Source of the DNA: Acidothermus cellulolyticus 11B | GTDB taxonomy: Bacteria; Actinomycetota; Actinomycetes; Acidothermales; Acidothermaceae | Assembly: GCF_000015025.1 (NCBI RefSeq) | Contig: NC_008578.1 | Location: forward strand, 1,500,001-1,532,000 | Direction of reading: 5' to 3' | DNA: 32,000 nucleotides | Shown: one piece after another, positions 667 to 25,074 of the stretch | Layout: each line of letters begins with the position of its first letter | Numbering within the stretch: the first letter of the stretch is position 1 | Made by a program: the position numbers and the translations under genes | The notes under the pieces: generated by a model | Database searches by the model: none | Seen by the model: only the letters and a program-made list of their open reading frames with translations | Told to the model about the DNA's origin: nothing

Positions 667-1635
667 TCACCACCCGCGGCCGGCGAGGCGGCGCTCGGCA
701 GGCAGGCTCTCGGCGGAAATCCCGACCATCGGTTCGCCGAGGCCGCGGGAGACCTTGGCGAGGACGTCGGGGTCGTCGTAGAACGTGGTCGCTTTGACGA
801 TGGCCGCGGCGCGCTTGGCGGGATCGCCGGATTTGAAGATGCCGGAGCCGACGAAGACGCCGTCCGCGCCGAGCTGCATCATCAGCGCCGCATCCGCGGG
901 CGTGGCGATTCCGCCGGCGGTGAACAGGACGACGGGGAGCCGGCCGGTGCGGGCGACTTCGCGGACCAGCTCGTACGGGGCCTGCAGTTCCTTGGCGGCG
1001 GCGTACAGTTCGTCGTCCGGCAGGCTGGTGAGCCGACGAATCTCGTCGCGGATCGCCCGCATGTGGGTGACCGCGTTGGAGACGTCCCCGGTGCCTGCCT
1101 CGCCCTTGGAGCGGATCATCGCTGCGCCTTCGGTAATCCGGCGGAGGGCTTCGCCGAGGTTGGTGGCGCCGCAGACGAACGGCACGGTGAACTGCCACTT
1201 GTCGATGTGGTGGGTGTAGTCGGCGGGGGTGAGCACCTCGGATTCGTCGATGTAGTCGACGCCGAGAGCCTGCAGGATCTGGGCTTCGACGAAGTGGCCG
1301 ATCCGGACCTTGGCCATCACGGGGATCGACACCGCGTTCATGATCTGCTCGATGAGTTCGGGGTCGCTCATCCGGGCGACGCCGCCCTGGGCGCGGATGT
1401 CCGCCGGCACGCGCTCGAGGGCCATCACCGCGACCGCGCCGGCGTCCTCGGCAATCTTCGCCTGCTCCGGCGTGACCACATCCATGATCACACCGCCCTT
1501 GAGCATCTCCGCCATTCCCCGCTTGACCCGGACCGTGCCGACCTGCGGTTGGGCCTCCGCCCCGGCCGATGCACCGCGCGGGGTGTCGCCGATGCGGTAG
1601 CGGAGTTCGGGGTCTTGCGACGTCGTCTGAGGCAC
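667..1635 (-). CDS. pdxS: Pyridoxal 5'-phosphate synthase lyase subunit PdxS
   Basis: Product contains [22 protein letters not shown]...[11 protein letters not shown]...FVCGA...[11 protein letters not shown]...[34 protein letters not shown], the typical PdxS/SNZ sequence. An AAGGAG Shine-Dalgarno lies 6 nt upstream of GTG 1635. ATG 1671 is the longest-ORF alternative. Confidence 0.93.
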
Positions 1636-1795
1636 GGAAATCTCCTTTGCCGCCGAATTCGGTTTGATCACTGCGGGCGCAGGTAGCGCCGTGGATGGCG
1701 GTCTTGCCTTGAGTCTAGGGCGGTCCGATGGACAGGTATGGAGGTGTTGCGAGCGGCGACCTCGGTCACGTGTGTGCCGCCCTCAGTTCTGAATC

Positions 1796-1824
1796 TTGAC
1801 ACGGGATCACGGCGAGGTTACCCT
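1796..1824 (+). promoter_or_regulatory. Candidate sigma-70-type promoter for the low-GC three-gene module (TTGACA-17 nt-TACCCT)
   Basis: TTGACA at 1796-1801, a 17-nt spacer, then TACCCT at 1819-1824, which fits the actinobacterial TANNNT -10. A flanking inverted repeat GATCAC (1805-1810) / GTGATC (1828-1833) could be an operator. Sequence pattern only. Confidence 0.35.
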
Positions 1825-1867
1825 CTGTGATCGTTCGTGAAGATCAACCACAAGGAGGGTGCGCGTC

Positions 1868-2290
1868 GTGTCAATCTGGCGGCGCATGAGTTACAGCGGC
1901 TTCGCTCTCCTTGTGTGCGCGGGAACAATTTTCGCGAGCGGGGTACCCGCGCACGCCGACGGCTCTCCCGGACTGGTGAATGGAACGGAGAGCATGAATA
2001 CCTGGTGGCCAGCAGCTGAGCTCACCGTCCCGGTGCAGTACGTAGGACCACCGTTTTTCTTTGGTGTGCCAACGCTAAAGGAAATCTCAAGTAGGGACAA
2101 CCGAGCTGAAGGACGAGCTCTCAAGAAGATGCAGTACGACCCGGCGTGCCGAATGGCGGTCTCCACGCCAACAGTCACGGACTTTCCGGGCTCCGGTGTT
2201 CAGCGGTTCGTGGTTGTCCCAATGGTGCTGGAGAATTCCACACACATCTGTACACCAATGAACACCAGCGGAACACCCCTCGCCAGCTGA
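1868..2290 (+). CDS. Small secreted protein of unknown family (signal peptide, two Cys in the mature part)
   Basis: AAGGAGG at 1852-1858 lies 9 nt before GTG 1868. The N-terminus VSIWRRMSYSGFALLVCAGTIFASGVPAHA|DG has a basic RR n-region, a hydrophobic core and an AxA cleavage-like site. The region has lower GC than its flanks. I recognise no family for the mature ~110 aa. Confidence 0.6.
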   Translation: MSIWRRMSYSGFALLVCAGTIFASGVPAHADGSPGLVNGTESMNTWWPAAELTVPVQYVGPPFFFGVPTLKEISSRDNRAEGRALKKMQYDPACRMAVSTPTVTDFPGSGVQRFVVVPMVLENSTHICTPMNTSGTPLAS

Positions 2291-2318
2291 TGGCAGCACG
2301 TGTTGAGGAAGATACCGA

Positions 2319-2996
2319 ATGAACGAATCCGTACTTCCATCATCCCGTGAAATTCACGAGTGGGTGCGCAAAGAAGAGCAGCGGCGGCAATCCGTGGAAA
2401 CTGCGGATCCGACTGCACTCGCCGCAGAGCTCGTCGGACTAGAGAATCGGCTGCGCATCCAGCGCGCACCGCTGGGACGACTACTGCGCCCCGGAGCGCC
2501 AGAAGAGGAGCTCCAAGCCACATTTTCTTGGCTTGGACTCACGCTTCCCGACGAGCTCCGCGTCCTGTACCAGTGGCATGACGGGACGATCGTTGACTTC
2601 GACGAACCTGAAGATCCAGACATGCCCGGACTCTGGATTTTCGATCGTCTTCGCAGCGCCGTTCTCAACTACCTGGATCTTGTCACCTTCTCTGAGGAGA
2701 CAGGAGATCTTGGTGATCCCGATCACATGTTGTCTACCTGGTTTCCTATCAGTTACTCGGATGGTCGAGCGCTCCTGGTCGAATGTAATGTTCCTCCCGG
2801 CCAGGCGAGTCACATTTACGTTTACTGTCACGACGACGTGACCCACTGTGCCGCGACATCTTTACTGAGCGTCGTCCGATTGTGGAACCGCATGTTCGAC
2901 GAGGGTTACTTCGTATATGACCCTTATACGTGTGAATGGCTCGACCGGTTCAGTGAGATCCCCGTCGAGTTGCGCATTTCCGGCCTTGTCGACTGA
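2319..2996 (+). CDS. SMI1/KNR4 (SUKH-1) family immunity-like protein, copy 1
   Basis: ATG 2319 is preceded by GAGGAAG. The motif LGLTLPDELRVLYQWHDG matches the SMI1_KNR4 core (LP.d...fY...nG). WFPI and the C-terminal SLLSVVRLWNRMFDEGYFVYDP are shared with the next gene, so the two are paralogs. Confidence 0.75.
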   Translation: MNESVLPSSREIHEWVRKEEQRRQSVETADPTALAAELVGLENRLRIQRAPLGRLLRPGAPEEELQATFSWLGLTLPDELRVLYQWHDGTIVDFDEPEDPDMPGLWIFDRLRSAVLNYLDLVTFSEETGDLGDPDHMLSTWFPISYSDGRALLVECNVPPGQASHIYVYCHDDVTHCAATSLLSVVRLWNRMFDEGYFVYDPYTCEWLDRFSEIPVELRISGLVD

Positions 2997-3025
2997 GAAG
3001 CGCTGCGGATCCACGGGGAGAACCG

Positions 3026-3712
3026 TTGCGAAACAGCCTCAGGTCAAATGACAGCGAGAGGAGCACGGTGACGCAGTTCGCCGACATACCAGCATTGACG
3101 GCTGAGCTCAACGGCTTCGCCGAACGCATCGCTACCCTGAAGCTGCCGCTCAGGTGGTGGAAAAGTTCATTTGCCCACGATGTCATTGATCGCGTCTTCC
3201 GCCATCTCCACCTCACCGTTCCGGACGAACTTCGTGCCTTCTACGCGTGGAGCAACACTTTCTCCACCGAAGCACGCGAATACATCCCCGGCTTCGGGGA
3301 AATAGAAATCTTTGGTCACAGCGTATCGACATACCTCTTATGCCTCCTCAATAAGCACGGTGACCCGGACAGTAACATACCTAGCGACGGTGACCGATAT
3401 CGCCGATCCTGGTTTCCACTCGGTGCTGTGTACGGTGAACGACACGACGTCATCCATGCCGTTGTTCTCGACTGCGACGTCACCCCGCAAGCTGCGAGTC
3501 CCGTGTACCTTTTTTCCAGAACTGGGCGGCCACAGCTCATCGGCCCCTCTCTCCTCGACGTTGTTCAGACGTGGAATCAGCTCCTTGACATCGGCTACTG
3601 GAGCTACGATCCCGACGCACACGGCTGGAGCCTCCACCCCGATAAGATTCCTTCAGGACTCCGCGCCGTAGCACAACTCGCCGCGTGCACCACACCCCGA
3701 CGGTCCACCTGA
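3026..3712 (+). CDS. SMI1/KNR4 (SUKH-1) family immunity-like protein, copy 2
   Basis: LHLTVPDELRAFYAWSN, WFPLG and SLLDVVQTWNQLLDIGYWSYDP parallel copy 1. The start is uncertain: TTG 3026 with GGGGAG upstream, or GTG 3068 with GAGAGGAG upstream. The stop lies 8 nt from the convergent gene's stop. Confidence 0.72.
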   Translation: MRNSLRSNDSERSTVTQFADIPALTAELNGFAERIATLKLPLRWWKSSFAHDVIDRVFRHLHLTVPDELRAFYAWSNTFSTEAREYIPGFGEIEIFGHSVSTYLLCLLNKHGDPDSNIPSDGDRYRRSWFPLGAVYGERHDVIHAVVLDCDVTPQAASPVYLFSRTGRPQLIGPSLLDVVQTWNQLLDIGYWSYDPDAHGWSLHPDKIPSGLRAVAQLAACTTPRRST

Positions 3713-3720
3713 CAACGCCC

Positions 3721-4326
3721 TCACCGCCCCGTCGGGGATTTCCCGGGAGACGGACCGGTGTCGCGAATCCCCCGCTGCCGTTCGGCGAACCGCAGGAGCG
3801 CAGCCGGGGGTTCGTCGTCGATTTCGAAGAAGGCGGGTTCCGGACGGCGGGCCAGGCGGAGGAGGCGGACCAACCGGTGCCGCCGTACGGCGAGAGTGGC
3901 GCGGACGGCGTCGTTGTGGAACCGCCGGGCCAGCGGGATTTTCGTGGCGGCGGCTTCGAGTTCTTCGATGAGCGGCCGGGCGGACGGATCGGAGGCCAGG
4001 GTGTCGAGGACGTCGCCTTCCCCGCCTTCCTCGTCGAACGCCGCCCGGAGCGCCACCGACAGGGCGCTCTCTTCCGCTTCACGGTCGGGGTCGTCGGCGG
4101 TGCGCGCCCGATGGGCGGCGGTGGCAAGGAGCAGGCTGGTGGCGGGGTCAAGCAGTCCGGAGGCGGCAAGCTCAAGGACGACCGCCGAGCGGCGCAGCAG
4201 GTGGGAGTCCAGGATCGCGCGGGCGGTTTCGACCCGGCCGTGCAGCCGGTCCAGCCGGCCCGCTGTCGCGGTTACGTAGGCGAGGACGACGATCCCGGCG
4301 ATGACCGCCCAGAACCACCACGGCAT
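3721..4326 (-). CDS. Membrane-anchored hypothetical protein (single N-terminal TM helix, possibly LemA-like)
   Basis: MPWWFWAVIAGIVVLAYVTA forms a TM helix, followed by an Ala/Arg-rich helical region (RLDRLHGRVETARAILDSHLLRRSAVV, weakly LemA-like). It is co-directional with pimA and starts 6 nt after the pimA stop. Coding-like GC3 bias. Confidence 0.6.
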   Translation of the reverse strand: MPWWFWAVIAGIVVLAYVTATAGRLDRLHGRVETARAILDSHLLRRSAVVLELAASGLLDPATSLLLATAAHRARTADDPDREAEESALSVALRAAFDEEGGEGDVLDTLASDPSARPLIEELEAAATKIPLARRFHNDAVRATLAVRRHRLVRLLRLARRPEPAFFEIDDEPPAALLRFAERQRGIRDTGPSPGKSPTGR

Positions 4327-4332
4327 GGCCGG

Positions 4333-5499
4333 CTACCCGTCGAGCCCGCCACCGGCCTCGGCAGCCAGCAGCGGGCCGCGGCGTACAACCGCCGCAGGGG
4401 TGATCGCTACCGTTTCGTAGACCCGAAGGATTTCCCGGGCGACGACCGTCCAGTCGTAGCGGCGGACCCGCTCCCGGCCGGCGAGGGCGAGGCTGACCCG
4501 TTGCGCCGGATCGCTCAGCAAATCAGACAGCACGGCGGCGAGCGCGGCGGCGTCACCAACCGGAAAGAGCCGGCCGGCGTGACCGTCGTCCAGGACGGCC
4601 CGGAATGCGGCAAGGTCGCTGGCAACGACCGGCGTCCCGGCGGCCATGGCTTCGAGGAGCACCACCCCGAAGCTCTCCCCGCCGGTGTTGGGCGCGACGT
4701 AAACGTCGACCGACCGGAGAATCCGCGCCTTGTCGTCCTCGCTCACCCGGCCCAGGAACGTGACCCGGTCGCGCACGTCGGTGTCGAGGGATCGCCGGAG
4801 CTGATCGCCGTCCCCCGGCCCGGCGATCAGCAGCCGGAGGCCGGGACGGCTCCGGGCAAGCCGGTGGAAGGCGTCGAGGAGCACGGCGAGTCCCTTGCGG
4901 GGTTCGTCGATCCGGCCGACGAAGCCGATGGCCCCGCCGTCGCCGGGCCAACCGTCGAGCGGCTCGGCGTCCGCGAACCGGTCGACCCGCACCCCGTTGG
5001 GAATGAGAACGGCGTCGCCGCCGAGGTGCTCGACCAAGGTGCGGCGGGCTGCTTCCGAGACGGCAACCCGTCCGTGGATTTTCTCCAACGCGGTCTGCAG
5101 GATCGGGTACGCGGCGACCATAGCCCGGGATCGGCTGATGGACGTGTGGAAGGTGCCGACCAGCGGACCGTCGGCGGCCCAGCAGGCGAGGAGACCAAGG
5201 CTGGGCGCGGCCGGTTCGTGCACGTGGACGACGTCGAATCCGCCGTCGCGGAGCCAGCGGCGGACCCGGCTGGCGGACAGAACACCGAAGCAGAGCCGCG
5301 CGATCGACCCGTTGTACGGAACCGGCACCGCGCGACCGGCAGGGACGGCGTACGTCGGCAGCGTGTCGTCGTCGTCCGCCGGTGTGATCACCGAGACGTC
5401 GTGGCCGAACTCGAGGAGGGTCTCGGCAAGATCGCGTACGTGTCCTTGGACCCCGCCAGGCACATCCCAGGTGTAGGGGCAGACCAGGCCGACCCGCAT
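4333..5499 (-). CDS. pimA: Phosphatidylinositol alpha-mannosyltransferase (GT4 family) PimA
   Basis: MRVGLVCPYTWDVPGGVQGHVRDLAE... at the N-terminus, and a C-terminal GT4 motif APNTGGESFGVVLLEAMAAGTPVVASD. GAGGAGG lies 7 nt before ATG 5499. Synteny with the acyltransferase, pgsA, HIT and thrS genes matches the mycobacterial Rv2609c-Rv2614c-type cluster. Confidence 0.88.
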   Translation of the reverse strand: MRVGLVCPYTWDVPGGVQGHVRDLAETLLEFGHDVSVITPADDDDTLPTYAVPAGRAVPVPYNGSIARLCFGVLSASRVRRWLRDGGFDVVHVHEPAAPSLGLLACWAADGPLVGTFHTSISRSRAMVAAYPILQTALEKIHGRVAVSEAARRTLVEHLGGDAVLIPNGVRVDRFADAEPLDGWPGDGGAIGFVGRIDEPRKGLAVLLDAFHRLARSRPGLRLLIAGPGDGDQLRRSLDTDVRDRVTFLGRVSEDDKARILRSVDVYVAPNTGGESFGVVLLEAMAAGTPVVASDLAAFRAVLDDGHAGRLFPVGDAAALAAVLSDLLSDPAQRVSLALAGRERVRRYDWTVVAREILRVYETVAITPAAVVRRGPLLAAEAGGGLDG

Positions 5500-5504
5500 C
5501 CCGG

Positions 5505-6491
5505 TCACCTCCTCGGTTCGCGGTCGGCGGTCCACAGCGGCTGCATCATGTGCCAATCCTGCGGGTGGGCGGCAATCGCCGCGGCAAACGCATCGGCGAG
5601 CTGCTGGGTGAGGGTGGCGATCCGCTCGGCCCGGTCGGTGTCCGGGGCTGGGGGTGGGACGTCGAGCGGCGGGAGGACCCGAGCGCCCCAGCCGTCGATG
5701 CGCCGACCGTTCTCCCCTCGGCGAGTGAACCAGAGTTCCACCGGCAGGAGCGCAGCGCCGGTGGTGACGGCAAGGGCAGCCGGACCGGGCGGCAACGTCG
5801 TCTCCTCGCCGAAGAATTTCACCGGGACGCCGTCACCAGCAAGGTCGCGGTCGGCCACCAGGCAGACGACACCGCCGGCACGCAGGCGGCGCACCAGCGT
5901 GGTGAAGGTGGATCGGTCCCCGTCGAGGCCGAGCACTTCCATGCCGAGGCGTTGCCGGACGGCGACGAAGCGCCGGAAGAGGCGGTCGGGTCTGAGCCGT
6001 TCGGCAACCGTGGTGAACGGGTAGCCGTGCCGGGCAAGCCACGCCCCGGCGTGATCCCAATTGCCGAGATGCGGCAGGGCGAGGATGACGCCGCGGCCGG
6101 CTTGTGCGGCCGCCTCGATGTGCTCGAAGCCTTCGACATCCATGCCGTCGTCGATGCGCCGACCGAGTTTGGGCAGCCGGAAGAACTCCACCCAGTACCG
6201 GGCGTAGGAGCGGAGTGCGTCCCGCGTGAGGGTGCGCAGGTCGGCGTCCGGGCCCACTACCCGGGCGAGGTTTCGTTCGAGTTGACCGACCCCTGGCGTG
6301 CGCCGCCACCAGAGCAGATCGGCGAGCCCGAAGAAAACGGCACGGACAACCGGTTCAGGCAGGGTCTCGGCGGCACGGGTTGCCGCCGCGAGCAGGCCGT
6401 ACCAGGCCCGGCGGCGTAGGCGCTGCAGCAGGGAGCGCCGCTTCGGACCGGGATCGCGGGAGGTCGGCTGGTTGCCGTGAGTCATGGTCAT
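5505..6491 (-). CDS. patA: Phosphatidylinositol mannoside acyltransferase (LPLAT/HtrB family)
   Basis: HLGNWD is the HX4D acyltransferase motif. The product also shows ...LVADRDL...FFGE..LPPGPAALA. ATG 6491 overlaps the pgsA stop as ATGA. Only the C-terminal 328 aa of the 496-aa ORF look protein-like. Confidence 0.8.
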   Translation of the reverse strand: MTMTHGNQPTSRDPGPKRRSLLQRLRRRAWYGLLAAATRAAETLPEPVVRAVFFGLADLLWWRRTPGVGQLERNLARVVGPDADLRTLTRDALRSYARYWVEFFRLPKLGRRIDDGMDVEGFEHIEAAAQAGRGVILALPHLGNWDHAGAWLARHGYPFTTVAERLRPDRLFRRFVAVRQRLGMEVLGLDGDRSTFTTLVRRLRAGGVVCLVADRDLAGDGVPVKFFGEETTLPPGPAALAVTTGAALLPVELWFTRRGENGRRIDGWGARVLPPLDVPPPAPDTDRAERIATLTQQLADAFAAAIAAHPQDWHMMQPLWTADREPRR

Positions 6492-13158: not shown

Positions 13159-14211
13159 TCACGCCGGGTGGAATCGCGGGCGAATCGATCCGCGCTCGCG
13201 AAGCGGCATGCGGATGCGGTAACGCCCTGGCGCCGGCCGACGCTCTCCGCGTATCTCTTTGAGCAAAAGTTCGACGGCGGTTCGGCCCAGCTCATAGTGC
13301 GGAAGAGCGACGGTCGTCAGCGGCGGCCGAACCCACGTCGCATAGATATCGTCATCGAAGGAGACGACTGATACGTCGTCGGGCACCCGGAGGCCGGCGT
13401 CGGCCAGTGCTTGGTAGGCACCGAGGGCCAAGCGGTCATTGAAGCAGATGAGTGCGGAGAGCTCCCGCACCTCTCTGAGCAGCCGGTGGGTCGCTTCCCA
13501 ACCGTGATGTGGTTGCCAGTCGTCGCAGCCTACGGCAGCAGCGATGTCGATTCCCTCTGCCGTGAAGACTTCTTCGATGCCCTGAAAACGTTCAATGGCC
13601 GCGAGACTATCGGTGCGGGTCCGTCCAGGTCCCACTCCGATAAGTCCGATGCCCTCACGATGTCCCGCCTCGAGCAAGGCGCGCGCCGCCGTGCGACCCC
13701 CTTCGATCTCGTCTGGTACGACGGAAACGATCGGCTTAGGACGGGCCGGTACCGCGTTGAGCAGAATCGAGGGCCGCTCGCCAAGCGACTTCGGGGGGAG
13801 CAGGGCACGCGTGTACATGGAGGCGAGGACAATTCCATCGACCTGCCGGTCGACCATCGCCTGGACCAGCTCTTGCTCTAATTCAGGATCTCCCTCGGAT
13901 TCAGCGATAAAGAGTAAATAGCCATGCTCGCGAGCAGCGTCCAAGGCACCCCAGATCAAGTGGCCCGCGAACGGCGCCGTGGAGATCGTATCCGAGACCA
14001 ATCCGATCGTATGCGTCGTCCCCGTGCGCAGACTCCGGGAGACGGCGTTCGGCCGGTAGTCCAAGACACGCACGGCATGGAGCACCCGCGCCTCGACGTC
14101 CGCCGAGATTCGCATGTCTTCTCGGCGCCCCGAGAGGACGAAGGACGCAGCCGTCTGCGAAACACCGGCAAGACGTGCGACGTCCGCGAGGGTAACCCGC
14201 TTCTTTGCCAT
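13159..14211 (-). CDS. LacI-family transcriptional regulator
   Basis: N-terminal HTH VTLADVARLAGVSQTAASFVLSG...YRPN, followed by a periplasmic-binding-protein-like sugar-binding core. Divergent from the sugar ABC genes. Confidence 0.92.
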   Translation of the reverse strand: MAKKRVTLADVARLAGVSQTAASFVLSGRREDMRISADVEARVLHAVRVLDYRPNAVSRSLRTGTTHTIGLVSDTISTAPFAGHLIWGALDAAREHGYLLFIAESEGDPELEQELVQAMVDRQVDGIVLASMYTRALLPPKSLGERPSILLNAVPARPKPIVSVVPDEIEGGRTAARALLEAGHREGIGLIGVGPGRTRTDSLAAIERFQGIEEVFTAEGIDIAAAVGCDDWQPHHGWEATHRLLREVRELSALICFNDRLALGAYQALADAGLRVPDDVSVVSFDDDIYATWVRPPLTTVALPHYELGRTAVELLLKEIRGERRPAPGRYRIRMPLRERGSIRPRFHPA

Positions 14212-14224
14212 GGTGATCCGCAGT

Positions 14225-14244
14225 GTAACGCGATGAAACGTTAC
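14225..14244. promoter_or_regulatory. Candidate LacI-type operator (inverted repeat GTAACG-N8-CGTTAC)
   Basis: GTAACG at 14225-14230 and CGTTAC at 14239-14244, containing a TGAAACGTTAC core that resembles LacI/GalR half-sites. It lies in the divergent region between lacI and the binding-protein gene. Confidence 0.35.
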
Positions 14245-14254
14245 CCAGTAGGGC

Positions 14255-14283
14255 TTGACAGGTTCAGCAGCCTCATGGAGAAT
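14255..14283 (+). promoter_or_regulatory. Candidate promoter for the sugar ABC operon (TTGACA-17 nt-GAGAAT)
   Basis: TTGACA at 14255-14260, a 17-nt spacer, and GAGAAT at 14278-14283 preceded by TG. Pattern only. Confidence 0.3.
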
Positions 14284-14433
14284 GCCATCTGACCGTGCTA
14301 ATACGCTTTAGCTGGACGGAGTAGCGATCGGCTTACGTTGATTGCACCGTCCACGACCGGTGAGGAGACCCTCGCTCGTTGCGTTCCCAGGCGCGCGGTG
14401 GCACGGCCGCGCCCTCAATTGAGGAGGCACGAC

Positions 14434-15870
14434 ATGATAGTCGACACTAACCGCGAGGTGAACCCGCGCCGCGGTTGGCGACGCGCAGGTCAGGTGACGG
14501 GTGTTGCCCTGGCACTGGCTCTCACGATTGCCGGCTGTAGCAGCGGGACAAAGACTTCGTCGTCACCGTCAACAAACCCACCGACGACATCGCCGTCGCA
14601 AAGCTCCAGTATCACGGCGTCGGGCGGGCCGCCAACCGAAGAGCAGGCATGCGGCACCAAGCCGGTAACCATGCAGGCGTACGTCGAAACGGGCTTCCCC
14701 GACGTTATCGACCTCATGCACCTATTCACCAAGCAGTACCCGAATGTGACGTGGAACATCCGGCAAGACCAATTCGCGGTCCTCACCCAGAATGCACCGC
14801 TCGTGCTCTCCGGGCCGAATCCGCCGGACATCATGCGTCTGCCACAGTTGAGCGGCCTTGTCCACGATCATCTTCTCAAGAACCTCGACTCCTACTATGA
14901 CGCGTACGGATGGAGCTCCTTCCCGTCGGCGCAGTTAGCGCAACTGCGGATGCCGCCGAGCGGTCACCCCAGAGGAAGCGGCTCTCTGTGGGCGATGGGC
15001 CTCAACTACAGCCTGACCGGTGTCTTCTACAACAAGACGCTGGCCGCGAAGATCGGAATGACCAGCCCGCCGAAGACGCTCGCCGAATTCGATGCGCTCC
15101 TCGCCAAGGCGAAGGCGGCGGGCCTCACGCCGATCGTCCAGTTCAACGGGGGCGCGACGGGTGGTCTGCTCTTTCCGCTGCAGCAACTCATGGCCGACTA
15201 CGGTCCGACAGACGCCATCAATAACTGGATCTTCCAGAAGCCCGGTGCCACGATTGACACGCCGTCCAATCTCGAAGCAGTCAAGCACCTCAAGCAATGG
15301 ATCGACAACGGCTACTTCAACAGCGACGCCAACGCCACCGACTACGCGAAGATGATGAGTAAGTTCGAACACGGCGAAGGTGTGTTCATGTTTGACGGTG
15401 ACTGGGAATCAGGAAATCTCGACAAACTCATGCCCGGCCAGGTCGGCTTCTTCCTCATGCCGCCGCTGAAGGAAGGCGACAAGTACGCAGCCATGTCCGC
15501 ACCCCTGACCTACGGAATTGCTGCGACCGCCAAGCATGCGGATTGCGCTGCCTTCTTCTTCAACTGGGTCGCGACCAACCCCGACGCTCGTCAGATGAAC
15601 GTCGAGGTCGGCGGGTCCAATCCCGGTGGTCCGCCGAATCTGCCGATCCCGGTCAAAGAAGGAACTCTCGTCGCACAGACACTGGCGGCAGGGAAGATCA
15701 TCGCTCAGGAGAACACGGCTATGGACTTCATTGCCAACGCGACCGGAGCGATCTATGCGCAGGCGTGGACACCCGAGGTTCAGAAACTGTTCGCCGGACA
15801 AGAGAGTCCTGAGGGTGTATTGCAGAAGGTCCAAGCCGCCTATGAACAGGAGATCAAGAGTGGTGCATAG
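14434..15870 (+). CDS. Carbohydrate ABC transporter solute-binding lipoprotein (family 1)
   Basis: GAGGAGG lies 6 nt before ATG 14434. The signal peptide ends in the lipobox LTIAGC, followed by a Ser/Thr/Pro linker. The body is typical of extracellular sugar-binding proteins. Confidence 0.88.
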   Translation: MIVDTNREVNPRRGWRRAGQVTGVALALALTIAGCSSGTKTSSSPSTNPPTTSPSQSSSITASGGPPTEEQACGTKPVTMQAYVETGFPDVIDLMHLFTKQYPNVTWNIRQDQFAVLTQNAPLVLSGPNPPDIMRLPQLSGLVHDHLLKNLDSYYDAYGWSSFPSAQLAQLRMPPSGHPRGSGSLWAMGLNYSLTGVFYNKTLAAKIGMTSPPKTLAEFDALLAKAKAAGLTPIVQFNGGATGGLLFPLQQLMADYGPTDAINNWIFQKPGATIDTPSNLEAVKHLKQWIDNGYFNSDANATDYAKMMSKFEHGEGVFMFDGDWESGNLDKLMPGQVGFFLMPPLKEGDKYAAMSAPLTYGIAATAKHADCAAFFFNWVATNPDARQMNVEVGGSNPGGPPNLPIPVKEGTLVAQTLAAGKIIAQENTAMDFIANATGAIYAQAWTPEVQKLFAGQESPEGVLQKVQAAYEQEIKSGA

Positions 15871-15909
15871 CTGACCCGGAAGTGTCAGCAGCCACAAAGG
15901 GGATGCTCC

Positions 15910-16857
15910 GTGAACCGTACGATGATCCAAGCGGTCAACACCGCCACCGATAGCGCCCCACGGCGGGCCCTCACCACGAGGGCCCGCCACCGGCCGTCAC
16001 ATCTCGGCTGGCTTTTCCTCATTCCGGCGCTCAGTGTGTATGGAATCTTCGTCCTGTGGCCCATCCTTCAAACCATCCGTTACTCCTTCTATTCATGGGA
16101 CGGCGTTGACAAGCCGCAATGGGCTGGGCTCCGCAACTTTCGGGCCGTATTCACCGATCCACAACTGACGTCCACGCTCGTGCATGTCGCCGAGCTGATT
16201 CTCTTCTTCACCGTCATCCCCGTCGGGCTCGGGCTCGTTCTCGCCGCCATCATGCAACGGGTGACGTCAAGAAGAGTGACATCGGTTGCACGCGCAGTCC
16301 TCATCTTGCCTCAGATCGTGCCGCTGGTAGCGGCCGGCATTGCGTGGAGCTGGGTCCTCTCGTCGTCCGGCGTGGTCAACCAAGTGCTGCAGGCAATCGG
16401 CCTTCGGCACATCACCCGTGCCTGGCTCGGCGACTTCACGACGGCGCTGCCCTCGGTCGGGCTGATCGGCGCATGGGTCTTGCTCGGACTCTGCACCGTC
16501 CTATTGTCCGTGGGAATGGGGAAGATTGACGCGAGTCTCTATGAAGCCGCCGTACTTGACGGAGCCGGACGCATACGCGAGTTCTTCGCCGTCACACTTC
16601 CCAGCATGCGCAATGAGATTGCCGTCTGCGTCACGGTGACGATGATTTCGGCACTCTCCGCGTTTGACATCGTCTACATCACCACGCAAGGCGGACCAGG
16701 TAACGCGACCATGGTCCCGGGCTTAAAGGTTTACCAATTGGCATTCTTCAATCGGCAAGTCGGGCTTGCGTCTGCGTTGGCTCTCGTTCTGATGGTCATC
16801 GTGATCCTCTGCATTATGCCGGTGCAATCGCTGTCGCGACGGAGTGGCGACGAATGA
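15910..16857 (+). CDS. Carbohydrate ABC transporter permease (MalF-like)
   Basis: Six predicted TM segments and the EAA loop LYEAAVLDGAGRIREFFAVTLPSMR. GTG 15910 has AAAGGGGA upstream. Confidence 0.88.
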   Translation: MNRTMIQAVNTATDSAPRRALTTRARHRPSHLGWLFLIPALSVYGIFVLWPILQTIRYSFYSWDGVDKPQWAGLRNFRAVFTDPQLTSTLVHVAELILFFTVIPVGLGLVLAAIMQRVTSRRVTSVARAVLILPQIVPLVAAGIAWSWVLSSSGVVNQVLQAIGLRHITRAWLGDFTTALPSVGLIGAWVLLGLCTVLLSVGMGKIDASLYEAAVLDGAGRIREFFAVTLPSMRNEIAVCVTVTMISALSAFDIVYITTQGGPGNATMVPGLKVYQLAFFNRQVGLASALALVLMVIVILCIMPVQSLSRRSGDE

Positions 16858-17678
16858 CGGAGAGACGTCAGGAAACCCTCATCAGCAGCGTCTTACTCGC
16901 TGCTGTCTTCGTGGTCACCTTGCTACCCTTCGCCAGCCTCTTCACCACTGCACTGCACACGTCAGGCACGTACCCCACGGGGCTCAGCTGGCCGAAGCAT
17001 CCGCAATGGCACAACTTCGTCGACGCGTTCCATGCCGCCGACATGGGGGCGATTTTCCTCTCCAGTACAAGCATTGTGCTCGGCGTCGTACCAGTCGCGA
17101 TCGTGCTTGCCACACTCGCCGGTTTCGCGTTAGGCCATCTGCGGCCGCGAGGCGGGCGCGCGGCGTTCGCGGTCTTTCTTGCCGGGCTGACCCTCCCGTT
17201 GGAGGGCGTCATCGTCCCGCTGTATTACGAGATCCGCGATTTTCACCTCTTGAACACCCGGTTTGCTATTATCCTGCCGCTTATCGGCCTCTACATGCCG
17301 TTCGCCGTCTACTGGATGCGCGCGCACTTCCTGGCGATGCCCAACGAGTTGTCCGAAGCCGCCCGCATCGACGGCGCCACGACGTGGCAGCTCTTCTGGC
17401 GGATACATCTGCCGCTCGCCCGTCCCGCCGTGACGGCACTCGGCATTCTCCTGACAATTTGGACGTGGAATCAGTTCTTGTTGGCGATCGTCCTGGTGGA
17501 CGATCCGAAGAAGCGCACGATGGCGGGTGCGCTCGGCGCATTCCAAGGCCAGTGGGGAACAAATATTCCACTGCTCGCTGCCGGTGCGCTGTTTATTCTT
17601 ACACCCATGCTCATCGTATTCCTCATATTCCAGAGAAACTTTGTCGTTGCTCTGCTGCAAGGATCGGTGAAGGGCTAG
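16854..17678 (+). CDS. Carbohydrate ABC transporter permease (MalG-like)
   Basis: ATGA start/stop overlap with the preceding permease. EAA loop LSEAARIDGATTWQLFWRIHLPLARP. Multiple TM segments. Confidence 0.9.
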   Translation: MTERRQETLISSVLLAAVFVVTLLPFASLFTTALHTSGTYPTGLSWPKHPQWHNFVDAFHAADMGAIFLSSTSIVLGVVPVAIVLATLAGFALGHLRPRGGRAAFAVFLAGLTLPLEGVIVPLYYEIRDFHLLNTRFAIILPLIGLYMPFAVYWMRAHFLAMPNELSEAARIDGATTWQLFWRIHLPLARPAVTALGILLTIWTWNQFLLAIVLVDDPKKRTMAGALGAFQGQWGTNIPLLAAGALFILTPMLIVFLIFQRNFVVALLQGSVKG

Positions 17679-17758
17679 CACATGCATGGCGACACGTTGG
17701 CGATCCGCTCTGCGGTCAATACCGTCGGGTCACCCGCTGTGAGTGACGGCGGCGGCTC

Positions 17759-18754
17759 ATGACGCTACGACTGGAAGACAAGTGGGTATGGGATTTCTGG
17801 TTTGCCGTCGACGGTGATGAATATCACGTCTTCTATCTTCAGGCGCCACGTTCTCTCGGCTCGCCGAATTTGCGTCATCGGCATGCATCCATCGGTCATG
17901 CGGTGTCGACGGATCTTCGGACGTGGTCAGTTCTACCTGACGCGGTGCTGCCCGGCACTCCCGGCAGCTGGGACGACCTGGCCGTATGGACGGGAAGCGT
18001 CATTCGACGTGGTGACACCTGGTACATGTTCTACACCGGCATCAGCAGTCGTGACCAGGGTCGCGTGCAGCGGATTGGGCTCGCCGTTTCGCAAGACTTG
18101 ATAGCGTGGCGGAAGCATCCAGCAAATCCGGTGCTTGAGGCTGACCCGAGATGGTACGAGCTTCTTGACTTATCCCGCTGGCGGGACCAGTCCTGGCGTG
18201 ATCCGTGGGTCTTCTACGTGCGGGAGGACGACAGCTTCCACCTGCTGGTTACCGCGCGGGTTCCCTACGGTCCGCCCGACGAGGCCGGGGTGGTCGGCCA
18301 CGCACAGTCCGCCGATTTGGTGAACTGGACGGTACTCCCACCGCTCACTCAGCCCGGTGAATTCGCCCAGGCGGAAGTGCCGCAGCTGGTGTATTACCAC
18401 GATACGTACGCGCTGCTCGTCTCCTGTCTCGCGGAAGATCACTCTCGCAAACGCCGCGCTGAAATGCGAGAGGTCGCCCAGACCGGTACATTCGTCGCGT
18501 ACGCCAGCGATTTTCGTGGACCGTACACGTGCTTCGAGGGACCGCTCGTTCCGGCTAACAATCCGCTCGGCCCCTTGTATGCGGGAAAACTTTTACACGC
18601 AGGAGATCAGTGGTGGTATTTTGCGTTTCGCGGTGATGACAGCCGGGAGTTTCACGGCGAGCTCATTGATCCGCTGCGTGTCGGCCAGACGGCGTCGTCG
18701 CGAATAGCGGTCGAACGTCCGCGGGGTTGGGTGCACCACGACGGACAGGATTGA
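17759..18754 (+). CDS. Cytoplasmic GH32-like (clan GH-J) glycoside hydrolase, catalytic beta-propeller only
   Basis: Motif series: VWDFWF (nucleophile region), HVFYLQAP...IGHAVSTDLRTW, WTGSV, MFYTG, RIGLAVSQDLIAWRKHPANPVL, WRDPWVF (RDP), EVPQL (acid/base region). No signal peptide. At 331 aa there is no room for the usual C-terminal beta-sandwich. Confidence 0.75.
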   Translation: MTLRLEDKWVWDFWFAVDGDEYHVFYLQAPRSLGSPNLRHRHASIGHAVSTDLRTWSVLPDAVLPGTPGSWDDLAVWTGSVIRRGDTWYMFYTGISSRDQGRVQRIGLAVSQDLIAWRKHPANPVLEADPRWYELLDLSRWRDQSWRDPWVFYVREDDSFHLLVTARVPYGPPDEAGVVGHAQSADLVNWTVLPPLTQPGEFAQAEVPQLVYYHDTYALLVSCLAEDHSRKRRAEMREVAQTGTFVAYASDFRGPYTCFEGPLVPANNPLGPLYAGKLLHAGDQWWYFAFRGDDSREFHGELIDPLRVGQTASSRIAVERPRGWVHHDGQD

Positions 18755-23586: not shown

Positions 23587-23648
23587 CCAGCCCAGCCCCG
23601 GGAGCCAGGCGGCAAGGTGCGCCGGAGGACGGCCGGCGGGGAGTGCCG

Positions 23649-23720
23649 TGGGCGTACATGGATTCGAACCATGGACCTCTGCCGTGTGAAGGCAGCGCTC
23701 TCCCGCTGAGCTATACGCCC
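23649..23720 (-). tRNA. tRNA-Val (anticodon CAC)
   Basis: The reverse complement folds as GGGCGTA-TA-GCTC-AGCGGGA-GAGC-G-CTGCC-TTCACAC-GGCAG-AGGTC-CATGG-TTCGAAT-CCATG-TACGCCC-A, a full cloverleaf. CCA is not encoded. Confidence 0.95.
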
Positions 23721-23786
23721 GTCGCGACCGGGCCGCGGCGAATGCCCCGGACACAATCTCCCGGCGAGGCGCTACTTTACACGCCC

Positions 23787-23861
23787 GCGCCGGTGGATGG
23801 GACACCCGTAGGCGCACCGGTGGACGTAACACCGATCGCCCGCACCGGTGGACGTAACACC
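23787..23861. repeat. Three 27-28-bp tandem units carrying CCGGTGGA / palindromic CACCGGTG, between tRNA-Val(CAC) and ssgB
   Basis: GCGCCGGTGGATGGGACACCC (about 23787). GCACCGGTGGACGTAACACC occurs identically at 23814-23833 and 23842-23861. Confidence 0.8.
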
Positions 23862-24043
23862 TGCAGGCGCGCCTCCACGACCCGAGCCGGGGCAAGAGCC
23901 GCCGTACTCGCCAGCGCACCGCAAGATCGGCCAGGCAATCCACGCGAAACTGAACCGACGATGCGCCAGTCGCGTGATAATCACCACAGGACAGGGAATG
24001 TCCGGAAGGTCGAACCCCGGCCACCGTCGAAAGGACGGCGATC

Positions 24044-24430
24044 ATGAACGCGTCCGTCCACATCATCGAGGTCACCGAGTTCCACCTGCTCCTCGACGGC
24101 GATAGCCGCGTCATAACCGCCCGACTCCATTACGACCCAGCCGACCCCTACGTGATCACCGTGCACTTTGACACCGGCGTAACGTGGGTGCTCGGGCGCG
24201 ATCTCTTGGCGGACGGCCTGCACATGGAGATCGGCGACGGTGACGTGCATCTTCGCCCGGAGGGTGACCAGCTTTTCCTCACCCTGCGTTCGCCGAGCGG
24301 CGAGGCGCTCCTTGCCGCTTCCCGATCAGCCATCGCGGGTTTCATGGCGGATACCGAGCGGGTCGTACCGCGAGGGACCGAGCACCTGCGCGTCGATCTC
24401 GACAAGGAGCTCGCCCGGCTCCTCCCGTAG
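24044..24430 (+). CDS. ssgB: SsgA-like protein (SALP), SsgB-type sporulation/cell-division protein
   Basis: The 128-aa product LHYDPADPYVITVHFDTG...WVLGRDLLADGL...GDGDVHLRP...LTLRSPSGEALL...FMADTERVVPRGTEH...DLDKEL matches the conserved SsgB pattern (RYD..DPYAV...F.RDLL..GL...G.GDV...SP.GEALL...VP.GTE). An adjacent tRNA cluster is, as I recall, also found next to Streptomyces ssgB. Confidence 0.85.
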   Translation: MNASVHIIEVTEFHLLLDGDSRVITARLHYDPADPYVITVHFDTGVTWVLGRDLLADGLHMEIGDGDVHLRPEGDQLFLTLRSPSGEALLAASRSAIAGFMADTERVVPRGTEHLRVDLDKELARLLP

Positions 24431-24436
24431 CGCCGT

Positions 24437-24626
24437 CCGGGACGCGGCCGGACGCGCTTCGTGGCCTCGCCCGGCTGCGGTCAGGACGCGACGGGACGCG
24501 ACCTGGCTGTTGTCGGGACGCGACGGGACGCGGCGCGCCGCACGTCGTGAGCGCGTCCGGCTTCGGACGGTCCGCACGTCGTGAGCCCATCCGGCTTCGG
24601 CCGGGACGCATGTCGTGACCTCGCCC
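24437..24626. repeat. GGGACGCG octamer array followed by ~2.5 copies of a 33-34-bp tandem repeat, between ssgB and tRNA-Gly
   Basis: (G)GGACGCG occurs at about 24439, 24450, 24484, 24493, 24515 and 24524. CCGCACGTCGTGAGCGCGTCCGGCTTCGGACGG (24538-24570) is repeated as TCCGCACGTCGTGAGCCCATCCGGCTTCGGCCGG (24571-24604), and a degenerate third unit runs to about 24626. Confidence 0.75.
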
Positions 24627-24761
24627 AGGTGCTGTCGTGGGGCGCGCCGGGAGCCCCGGCGCCACGGCGCGCGACGCGACCCGTAAGGATGGGCGGGCCG
24701 GTTTCCGTCTCGCCGCCGAATCGGTTAGAGTGCAGAACGCAACGGGGTGCAAGCCCCCAAC

Positions 24762-24834
24762 GCGGACGTGGCTCAGTTGGTAGAGCATCACCTTGCCAAG
24801 GTGAGGGTCGCGGGTTCGAGTCCCGTCGTCCGCT
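24762..24834 (+). tRNA. tRNA-Gly (anticodon GCC)
   Basis: GCGGACG-TG-GCTC-AGTTGGTA-GAGC-A-TCACC-TTGCCAA-GGTGA-GGGTC-GCGGG-TTCGAGT-CCCGT-CGTCCGC-T. Confidence 0.95.
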
Positions 24835-24882
24835 CGGAGGCGCCCGGACGGCGTCGCAGGGCCGGATGTGATCAGGCCCCCC

Positions 24883-24954
24883 GGCGGAGTGGCCGAGTGG
24901 CTTAGGCAAGGGCCTGCAAAGCCCTGTACGCGGGTTCGATTCCCGCCTCCGCCT
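24883..24954 (+). tRNA. tRNA-Cys (anticodon GCA)
   Basis: Acceptor GGCGGAG/CTCCGCC, anticodon stem-loop AGGGC-CTGCAAA-GCCCT, T-arm GCGGG-TTCGATT-CCCGC. Confidence 0.92.
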
Positions 24955-24999
24955 CACCTCTCGGCCGGCCCGATCCCACGGGAACCGAGCGGACGCGTC

Positions 25000-25074
25000 G
25001 GGCGCTTAGCTCAGTGGGAGAGCGCTACCTTGACACGGTAGAGGTCGGCAGTTCAATCCTGCCAGCGCCCACCA
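25000..25074 (+). tRNA. tRNA-Val (anticodon GAC), CCA encoded
   Basis: GGGCGCT-TA-GCTC-AGTGGGA-GAGC-G-CTACC-TTGACAC-GGTAG-AGGTC-GGCAG-TTCAATC-CTGCC-AGCGCCC-A-CCA. Confidence 0.95.

Follow-up and report, generated by a model that had tools for sequence, protein, structure and literature searches.

Why does the chromosome of Acidothermus cellulolyticus 11B carry three genes of low G+C content (GC) between its vitamin B6 gene pdxS and a conserved pair of genes, p201 and pimA? The genes, Acel_1349, Acel_1350 and Acel_1351 (chromosome of 2,443,540 bp), lie at 1868–3712 of the stretch analysed here, 32,000 nucleotides (nt) of contig NC_008578.1 (1,500,001–1,532,000), which we term the window and to which all positions refer unless another locus is named. 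We call the genes ORF1 (ORF, open reading frame), SUKH_A and SUKH_B, and the low-GC segment that holds them (1690–3715) the island. An earlier note on this DNA had seen either a secreted toxin with two immunity genes, gained by horizontal transfer, or an orphan array of immunity genes beside an exported protein with no relation to them. We think it probable that a toxin–immunity cassette was acquired horizontally and that its toxin was then truncated, leaving an orphan double-immunity operon.

Both SUKH genes are annotated as such in public databases already: Acel_1350 is named 'SMI1/KNR4 family protein' at RefSeq, and the product of 3068–3712 matches ABK53123.1 (Acel_1351) exactly. Acel_1349 is listed as a 'hypothetical protein' (WP_148204563.1) at RefSeq and as a 'Secreted protein' at UniProt, and it is the reading of this gene that is new. 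A literature search for Acel_1349–1351 found no mention of them.

ORF1 and the NucA/NucB family

ORF1 has no match of its own in Pfam (E ≤ 1), PF14040 included, or in NCBIfam. Word-indexed homolog searches, whether with ORF1 or with SUKH_A, return same-species copies only, so that an exhaustive phmmer search was needed to reach the relatives of ORF1. This search, among 1.84 billion representative sequences, gives 11 matches. Apart from the same-species copy and one match to a repeat protein, they cover only residues ~60–135 of ORF1, and the matching region forms the C-terminal ends of proteins that are 92 to 536 residues long. Eight of the nine informative homologs (P0004–P0012) exceed the Pfam cut-off for PF14040 (DNase NucA/NucB), the sole exception being P0009, a fragment of 92 residues. 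A profile search adds ~70 more proteins, nearly all of them PF14040-positive.

A clade profile of 189 positions was built from 17 domains, with ORF1 left out. By hmmsearch it aligns residues 69–135 of ORF1 with profile positions 98–164, and positions 1–97 find no match. With conservation of a column set at 80% or more of the family, ORF1 keeps 14 of 16 such columns in the C-terminal half (the other two have V replaced by I and A by V) and 0 of 35 in the catalytic N-terminal half. Over the common half the mean identity of ORF1 to the family is 0.40, the family's own being 0.42. The retained part is made up of the second beta strand, a helix bearing the Asn of the metal site (N78, in RDNRAEG), and the C-terminal strand together with the S.H.C motif. 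In a BLASTP comparison with the 579-residue toxin of locus L088, G60–S140 of ORF1 align with residues 486–579, the extreme C-terminus of that toxin (40% identity, E 4e-16).

The domain breaks in ORF1 just past the family's CDEYPFYTTVEGGPGA strand. Residues 31–68 stand where the family has its catalytic CDEYPFYTTVEGG strand, and here ORF1 reads YVGPPFFFGVP. No out-of-frame remnant of the catalytic half is present in the other reading frames of 1400–2400. An AlphaFold model of mature ORF1 from a 10-sequence alignment is unusable (predicted local distance difference test score, pLDDT, 52). With 80 sequences the pLDDT is 62 and only the C-terminal half is confident: mature residues 1–35 stay below 50, and block means are 64–88 for residues 41–100, a strand–helix–strand. 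Foldseek finds no match to this model in the PDB better than E 7.6, so the link to NucB rests on sequence profiles and not on fold.

The earlier note had described a protein of 140 residues starting at 1868, with RR near the N-terminus, an AHA|DG cleavage-like site (residues 28–32) and a mature part with two cysteines (C94 and C128), and this description is accurate. Residues 1–30 are signal-peptide-like by a heuristic (MSIWRRMSYSGFALLVCAGTIFASGVPAHA|DG, with two Arg and with AHA at −3 to −1), and the hydrophobic core has a 12-residue Kyte–Doolittle maximum of 2.39 at residue 12. The note had also left the protein without a family. This stands for the searches with ORF1 itself against Pfam, NCBIfam and structures, all empty; it does not stand for the C-terminal half, which comes from the PF14040 clade. 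Its proposal of a new small toxin domain fails, ORF1 being the C-terminal half of a known family without the catalytic strand. Judged by these profiles, ORF1 is a remnant of a NucA/NucB-type (PF14040) nuclease toxin, and it is predicted to be exported.

In Bacillus NucB, four residues are each needed for catalysis: Asp93 binds the metal, Glu94 acts as general base in place of the His of His-Me finger nucleases, Asn117 chelates the metal and His53 positions Asp93. The D93A/N, E94A, N117A and H53-equivalent variants are inactive (PMC5758888). The clade profile aligns the NucB sequence DRDEWP...EEGG.GA...DNRG with CDEYP...EGGPGA...EN.AEG. In a search of PDB sequences it finds NucB weakly (E 0.2), and the motif that is aligned there is the catalytic one, which is missing in ORF1. 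Of 143 family sequences, 139 carry DE[YWF]P (CDE[YF]P), and ORF1 does not; P0009 and P0032, both fragments, and the 3′ part of the frameshifted L121 gene are among those without it. A forced MAFFT alignment puts Y-V-G-P-P of ORF1 opposite C-D-E-Y-P of the family. ORF1 thus has neither the Asp–Glu pair nor the upstream His (the H of AAxHD, NucB His53). N78 (SRDNRAEG) is invariant in the alignments, and one natural allele, with SLANQAEG, still has the Asn. Because ORF1 keeps only the Asn of the four residues essential to NucB, a NucB-type catalytic mechanism is excluded for it at the level of the sequence, and an assay for Mg/Mn-dependent DNase activity is predicted to be negative.

The SUKH pair

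The next two genes had been read in the earlier note as SUKH paralogs, and paralogs they are, with 30% identity (BLASTP, E 2e-24). Profile evidence for the family differs between them: SUKH_A matches PF09346 with 31.4 bits (cut-off 25.4), and SUKH_B, with 15.6 bits, falls below the cut-off and is assigned to SUKH-1 through its paralogy to SUKH_A and through the subfamily alignments. Both align over their full length with the proteins encoded directly 3′ of ORF1's relatives. The subfamily so defined has the motifs LP.ELR.W..WHDG, WFP and SL...V..W.....GYW.YD in common, and 22 of its 42 members match PF09346 at E ≤ 0.01. A profile of the 42 members, compared with the sequences of solved structures, finds Knr4 (8aj2, E 3.7e-8), Smi1 (5j1b, E 7e-6) and, weakly, FBXO3 (9kbd, E 0.031). 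By these alignments SUKH_A and SUKH_B are SUKH-1 (SMI1/KNR4) immunity-type proteins, encoded by two tandem genes of the same family in the same orientation with a short spacer. They are predicted to be cytoplasmic, without a signal peptide: neither has an N-terminal hydrophobic segment by the heuristic, and their 12-residue hydropathy maxima (1.59 and 1.54) are internal.

Toxin–SUKH pairs at other loci

Among the contexts of the close homologs of ORF1, a SUKH gene lies directly downstream in L082, L083/84 and L086, and after an insertion sequence in L085. A metagenome scan with full domains and their catalytic motif gives 53 further loci, 52 of them with room to judge the downstream gene. In 45 of these 52 independent loci the nuclease gene is followed immediately, on the same strand, by a SUKH gene of the subfamily that starts no more than a few hundred nt past the stop codon. 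The toxin–immunity context proposed for the pair is therefore upheld, since the subfamily normally follows PF14040 nuclease domains, and homologs of the small protein do co-occur with SUKH genes, a point that the earlier note had proposed to check. For the same reason the second option of that note comes closer than the first in one part and fails in another: the array is probably an orphan one, and the exported protein beside it is not unrelated, being a remnant of the very toxin family that this SUKH subfamily accompanies.

The nuclease ORFs of these loci reach more than 1,800 residues; those of L103, L112 and L134 encode Rhs-repeat proteins and that of L127 has a transglutaminase core, and the PF14040 domain is C-terminal in each. 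SUKH arrays occur in four loci, with six genes in L120, three in L088 and two each in L099 and L121. The nearest relatives of the ORF1 half-domain, of SUKH_A and of SUKH_B all lie in the single locus L088, SUKH_A being 44% identical to the second SUKH protein there and SUKH_B 31% identical to its nearest relative. By these similarities the island resembles an L088-like locus in reduced form.

Some of these loci have features of their own. L120 (294–6151) and L088 (894–4980) hold homogeneous polyimmunity arrays of divergent SUKH genes after a NucB-type toxin. In L085 (380–1256 and 3947–4849) and L086 (1506–1961) the NucB-type toxins stand among modules of Colicin_D with Colicin_immun or Barstar, and in L085 a DDE transposase separates toxin and SUKH gene. 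The nuclease gene of L121 (965–2141) is frameshifted into pieces of 70 and 74 residues, followed by two SUKH genes, and L138 (62–1678) has a nuclease fragment of 90 residues with SUKH genes on both sides.

Acquisition of the island

The drop in GC reported in the earlier note is real. Windows of 200 nt within 1700–3700 range from 0.525 to 0.635, mostly 0.53–0.61, and the note's count of 28 G+C in the 60 nt at 2041–2100 is exact; its figure of ~70% for the flanks applies to the immediate flanks (0.70–0.75) and not to the window as a whole (0.659). With a GC of 0.577 the island is the lowest-GC stretch of its size in the window, where segments of equal size elsewhere have a mean of 0.659 ± 0.030 and a minimum of 0.598. 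A scan of windowed GC and codon usage, suggested in the same note, confirms the contrast with the flanks: GC at third codon positions is 0.65 in ORF1, 0.61 in SUKH_A and 0.65 in SUKH_B, against 0.90 in pdxS and 0.84 in each of pdxT, p201 and pimA (flank range 0.82–0.90).

Related loci were collected by a PimA scan with one genome per species, which gives 80 loci; the best, 67–72% identical, are from metagenome-assembled genomes of Acidothermaceae and from Thermomonospora and Actinoallomurus. p201 adjoins pimA in 74 of the 80. The 69 loci that hold both p201 and pdxS form the set for comparing the insertion. The p201–pdxS gap is empty (48–468 bp) in 32 of them and, in 34, measures ~1.1–1.7 kb at native GC with a DUF3048 lipoprotein gene; of the remaining three, one has a gap of 768 bp and two have a larger one. 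In none of the 69 does this interval hold a homolog of ORF1, SUKH_A or SUKH_B, and SUKH and nuclease profiles have no match in 1.39 Mb of related loci. The island is thus missing in 69 of 69 intervals, rather than shared at similar GC, and its deviant composition together with this absence from the same site in relatives bears out horizontal acquisition.

The gap is a recurrent point of gene gain or loss, since it is filled by DUF3048 in about half of the relatives and empty in the other half. The DUF3048 gene lies at 11877–12893 in L003 and at the same position, with native GC, in 33 other related loci.

Within the species, the identical three-gene arrangement is found at the same place in every assembly recovered; the exact ORF1 is in 15 same-species contigs, and L001 and L144 carry divergent alleles.

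The last ~10 codons of SUKH_B (3680–3712, GC 0.73) extend past the ends of SUKH_A and of the other subfamily members, and because of this GC-rich tail the right junction may lie near 3680. At the C-terminus of the p201 product (3721–3800), ~25 extra residues (…AALLRFAERQRGIRDTGPSPGKSPTGR) follow the point where the conserved FFEIDD.PP end falls in L003. Given these additional residues, SUKH_B and p201, which converge here, may both have had their 3′ ends changed by the junction.

Selection within the species

Polymorphism was counted in six A. cellulolyticus assemblies (the window, L001, L140–142 and L144), with 21 segregating sites; Table 1 gives the counts for each gene with the ratio of nonsynonymous to synonymous polymorphism (pN/pS). 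The density of nonsynonymous sites is 4.5-fold higher in ORF1 than in the SUKH genes (Fisher p 0.011), and synonymous densities are alike (0.019–0.026). One ORF1 allele changes RDNR to LANQ in the leftover metal-site motif. In these small numbers ORF1 drifts neutrally and the SUKH genes are under purifying selection, which points the same way as the anatomy of the proteins.

Proposed history and its alternatives

In the history that we favour, a foreign cassette of ~2 kb would have entered the A. cellulolyticus lineage and settled in the short gap between pdxS and p201–pimA. Its ancestor would have held a gene for an exported protein with a C-terminal DNase domain of the NucA/NucB beta-beta-alpha-metal type; SUKH-1 immunity genes would have come next, their products binding and neutralising that domain in the cytoplasm of the producer. 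The toxin gene would then have lost, in one clean truncation, everything from soon after the signal peptide to just beyond the catalytic strand, by an in-frame internal deletion or by fusion to a new 5′ end; both routes are compatible with ORF1, because its residues 1–68 match nothing. The gene would have kept its promoter-like element, its ribosome-binding site, its start codon and its signal peptide. The old toxin promoter would still drive SUKH_A and SUKH_B, which are probably co-transcribed, given gaps of 28 and 71 nt and no terminator-like site between the genes.

By analogy with other SUKH systems, the pair may bind NucB-type domains delivered by competitors, its divergent paralogs covering different variants. 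The likely role of the SUKH genes is thus, on that analogy, an orphan and double immunity against the NucB-type toxins of competitors, without the cost of making a toxin. We infer, as parts of this history, that ORF1 is exported, that the SUKH proteins have the binding specificity described and that no intact cognate toxin is encoded elsewhere in the genome; the window itself contains no intact PF14040-type toxin, and the family profile search (81 matches) yields only the ORF1 cluster from A. cellulolyticus, the genome itself not having been scanned.

Several points weigh against the truncated-cassette history. The frame of ORF1 is intact, with a good Shine–Dalgarno site and signal peptide, in every assembly, and its C-terminal half is conserved as in functional relatives, which means either that the truncation is recent or that the fragment is still in use. 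Residues 1–68 reach only E ≥ 0.35 in BLASTP against the family and have no counterpart in a full-length toxin. Polymorphism counts are small (9, 5 and 7 sites in ORF1, SUKH_A and SUKH_B), and the contingency table of nonsynonymous and synonymous sites taken alone is not significant (p 0.18). No mobility signature accounts for the arrival of the insert: there is no integrase or transposase between pdxS and p201, the nearest tRNA gene is 20 kb away, and the longest direct or inverted repeat at the edges is 8 nt, a length reached in 88 of 300 shuffles.

The alternative that fares best, though we regard it as unlikely, is that all three genes are undecayed leftovers of a past transfer and that the SUKH genes confer nothing. 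It agrees with the fact that no intact partner toxin is seen, with a composition that has not ameliorated and so suggests recent arrival, and with the small polymorphism counts. It sits poorly with two SUKH genes that are full-length relative to their homologs, with pN/pS values of 0.21 and 0.24 there against 1.15 in the adjacent ORF1 at the same synonymous diversity, and with the presence of the island in every sampled population contig.

Retention of the truncated gene for a new purpose is quite unlikely. Acel_1349 would here be kept as an exported protein with an extracellular role independent of the SUKH genes, for example as a DNA-binding or receptor-binding decoy. Such a role would account for the open frame and export signals in all alleles and for the 14 of 16 conserved columns in the C-terminal half, whose modelled core has the block means given above for mature residues 41–100. 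The polymorphism nonetheless looks neutral and includes non-conservative changes in the conserved helix, the protein is found in a single species, half of a compact domain of ~100 residues is unlikely to fold alone, and Foldseek gives no match.

That Acel_1349 is still an active toxin, working through a minimal or novel active site while the SUKH pair protects its producer, strikes us as very unlikely. The ORF, Shine–Dalgarno site, promoter-like element and signal peptide are all intact, the order of toxin then immunity is canonical, and the C-terminal half is well conserved, including the metal-site Asn and the Cys...S.H.C motif. Against this, the entire catalytic half is gone, with the Asp–Glu pair of 139 of 143 relatives and the His, each essential in NucB, and the segment that replaces it is predicted by the model to be unstructured. 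A pN/pS of ~1, an allele with three substitutions in the leftover metal-site motif and an architecture found in no other organism among 15 billion proteins argue the same way.

It is highly improbable that Acel_1349 is a retained, exported and inactive NucB-type half-domain acting, for example, as an extracellular decoy that would occupy the receptor or uptake route taken by incoming NucB-type toxins. If true, this would make a two-layer defence together with the cytoplasmic SUKH pair, a toxin domain having been domesticated into an extracellular immunity factor.

Least probable of all is a housekeeping, non-immunity role for the SUKH genes (as for eukaryotic Smi1/Knr4 and bacterial Syd) with the nuclease fragment an incidental neighbour, for although the superfamily has non-immunity members (PMC3113570) and the best solved profile match is yeast Knr4, the subfamily directly follows NucB-type domains in 45 of 52 loci and has none in 1.39 Mb of control actinobacterial DNA, and the island has a foreign composition and is missing from all relatives.

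Gene layout, expression signals and other features of the window

The genes of the island and its flanks are listed in Table 1. p201 and SUKH_B are convergent, with stop codons 8 nt apart. The likely start of pdxS is a GTG at ~1635, preceded by a AAAGGAGA site; the ORF list carries this frame to 1671. ORF1 and SUKH_A are 28 nt apart, SUKH_A and SUKH_B 71 nt, or 29 nt with the TTG start at 3026 that the earlier note had chosen for SUKH_B (228 residues); the GTG at 3068 (214 residues), as in RefSeq and in the gene calls, is the likelier start.

Table 1. Features of the island and its native flanks (window positions), with polymorphism counts for the three island genes
Feature	Position	Strand	Basis or remark	Nonsynonymous sites	Synonymous sites	pN/pS
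pdxT	32–640	−	gene order			
pdxS, left native flank	667–~1635	−	PF01680 SOR_SNZ, E 3e-110; 322-residue gene calls			
ORF1 (Acel_1349), 140 residues	1868–2290	+	predicted exported remnant of PF14040-type toxin; homologs via phmmer	7	2	1.15
ORF1 signal-peptide-like segment, residues 1–30	1868–1957	+	heuristic			
ORF1 unique 38-residue segment, residues 31–68	1958–2071	+	profile positions 1–97 unmatched			
ORF1 C-terminal half of NucB-type domain, residues 69–135	2072–2272	+	hmmsearch, E 8e-21			
SUKH_A (Acel_1350), 225 residues	2319–2996	+	PF09346 match	2	3	0.21
SUKH_B (Acel_1351), 214 residues	3068–3712	+	paralogy to SUKH_A	3	4	0.24
p201, 201-residue membrane-anchored protein, right native flank	3721–4326	−	gene order, relatives			
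pimA	4333–5556	−	gene order			
acyltransferase	next after pimA	−	gene order			

The Shine–Dalgarno sites described in the earlier note are in place: AAGGAGG (1852–1858) 9 nt 5′ of GTG 1868, GAGGAAG 5′ of ATG 2319 and GAGAGGAG 5′ of GTG 3068. Its promoter call needs qualifying. The sequence TTGACA-17 nt-TACCCT is indeed present at 1796–1824 on the forward strand, and only the looser actinobacterial TANNNT rule makes it promoter-like. Scans of 1500–4400 for sigma-70 consensus promoters and for terminators flag nothing, the consensus scanner passing over 1796–1824 because TACCCT matches TATAAT at 3 of 6 positions. No other promoter-like element was seen ahead of the three genes, all of which point the same way. 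The TACCCT is bracketed by a 6-nt inverted repeat, GATCAC...GTGATC (1806–1833), which could be an operator.

Three further features of the window lie outside the island. A second stretch of lower GC (13159–18754, 0.595–0.635 per kb against ~0.66–0.72 elsewhere) carries a LacI-family regulator on the reverse strand and, on the forward strand, a sugar ABC transporter (solute-binding protein and permeases) with a GH32 glycoside hydrolase; it may be another acquired block. The segment 7300–7600 is C-rich, with a GC of 0.83–0.88 and imperfect repeats of GCGCCCGC(A/C)..., and sits between a divergent pair, a PI-synthase-like gene (−) and an EF-G-like GTPase gene (+); mechanical ORFs in it translate to Pro/Ala/Arg-rich sequence. 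The tRNA cluster at 23648–25074, Val(cac) on the reverse strand and then Gly(gcc), Cys(gca) and Val(gac) on the forward strand, is the one 20 kb off and is unrelated to the island.

Relation to known systems and significance

SUKH immunity, supernumerary SUKH genes and polyimmunity loci are known from polymorphic toxin systems (PMC3113570, PMC3482391), and tandem arrays of such genes as well as orphan immunity have likewise been well described. The island shares with these the tandem, co-directional, closely spaced and divergent paralogs directly after a nuclease-toxin gene, and its relatives share the arrangement of an Rhs or other N-terminus, a C-terminal nuclease and then one to six SUKH genes. 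Foreign composition and a strain- or lineage-specific distribution are further points in common. It differs in that its toxin is truncated and without an active site, and in that the toxin domain is of the Bacillus NucA/NucB family (PF14040, with DRDE/DNRG motifs). The 'Tox-NucA' that Zhang et al. paired with SUKH belongs not to PF14040 but to the NucA family of Serratia/Anabaena (GH, N, N, E) (PMC3113570), and 'NucB' is not found in the text of the 2012 catalogue (PMC3482391).

With NucB/NucA of Bacillus (PF14040; 5OMT, 6EJS; PMC5758888) the resemblance is that of the domain. The relatives of ORF1 exceed the PF14040 cut-off and align with NucB over DE-W/Y-P...EGG.GA...DN-R-G; ORF1 itself keeps the C-terminal strand and the helix that bears the metal-site Asn, and at ~110 residues its mature form is of the same size as NucB. 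Unlike NucB, ORF1 is without the N-terminal half, the first beta strand (Asp93/Glu94) and His53, and has no Pfam match of its own, and its clade has an additional C-terminal Cys...GPPS.H.C motif. NucB is moreover a free biofilm and competence nuclease with no adjacent immunity gene, whereas the clade of ORF1 is immunity-linked.

Toxicity on expression in Escherichia coli has been shown for NucB-like domains at the C-terminus of WapA/Rhs toxins (Streptococcus suis WapA-CT1, PMC12704120), and such domains also figure among the Rhs-Ct families of Stenotrophomonas, alongside Knr4/Smi1 immunities (bioRxiv 10.64898/2026.07.13.738213). These toxins, like L103, L112 and L134, have a NucB-type fold as a polymorphic C-terminus with an adjacent candidate immunity gene. 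They differ in being intact and toxic on expression, the window holding a remnant only, and their named immunity families are not said to belong to the SUKH-1 subfamily of the island. Some literature matches for 'NucB' with Rhs proved false, coming from the stain 'NucBlue' and from a strain labelled 'Nuc^BB22'.

Orphan immunity genes and decayed effectors (PMC12247911, PMC10539506) are a further parallel, in that immunity is kept without a working cognate effector, presumably as protection from non-self toxins; L121 is another decayed case, in ORF1's own family. Those examples are from type VI secretion systems of Gram-negative bacteria, whereas the present one is from a thermophilic actinobacterium and its toxin ancestor was probably Sec-exported.

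For the organism, the immediate gain is one of annotation: Acel_1349 moves from a 'hypothetical' or 'secreted' protein to a truncated NucB-type toxin remnant, and the two SMI1/KNR4 genes inside a housekeeping block of this thermophilic cellulolytic actinobacterium are now explained. The locus offers a clean, datable case of a toxin lost and its immunity kept, with a break just past the catalytic strand and with contrasting selection on the toxin remnant and the immunity genes. Perhaps the more useful by-product is that a defined SUKH-1 subfamily goes with PF14040-type nuclease domains in 45 of 52 loci, where the N-terminal scaffolds are Rhs, transglutaminase-bearing or smaller. This pairing is a modest addition that brings no new principle and leaves current understanding unchallenged; it is distinct from the 'Tox-NucA'/SUKH pairing of 2011–2012, and it supplies matched pairs for studies of specificity.

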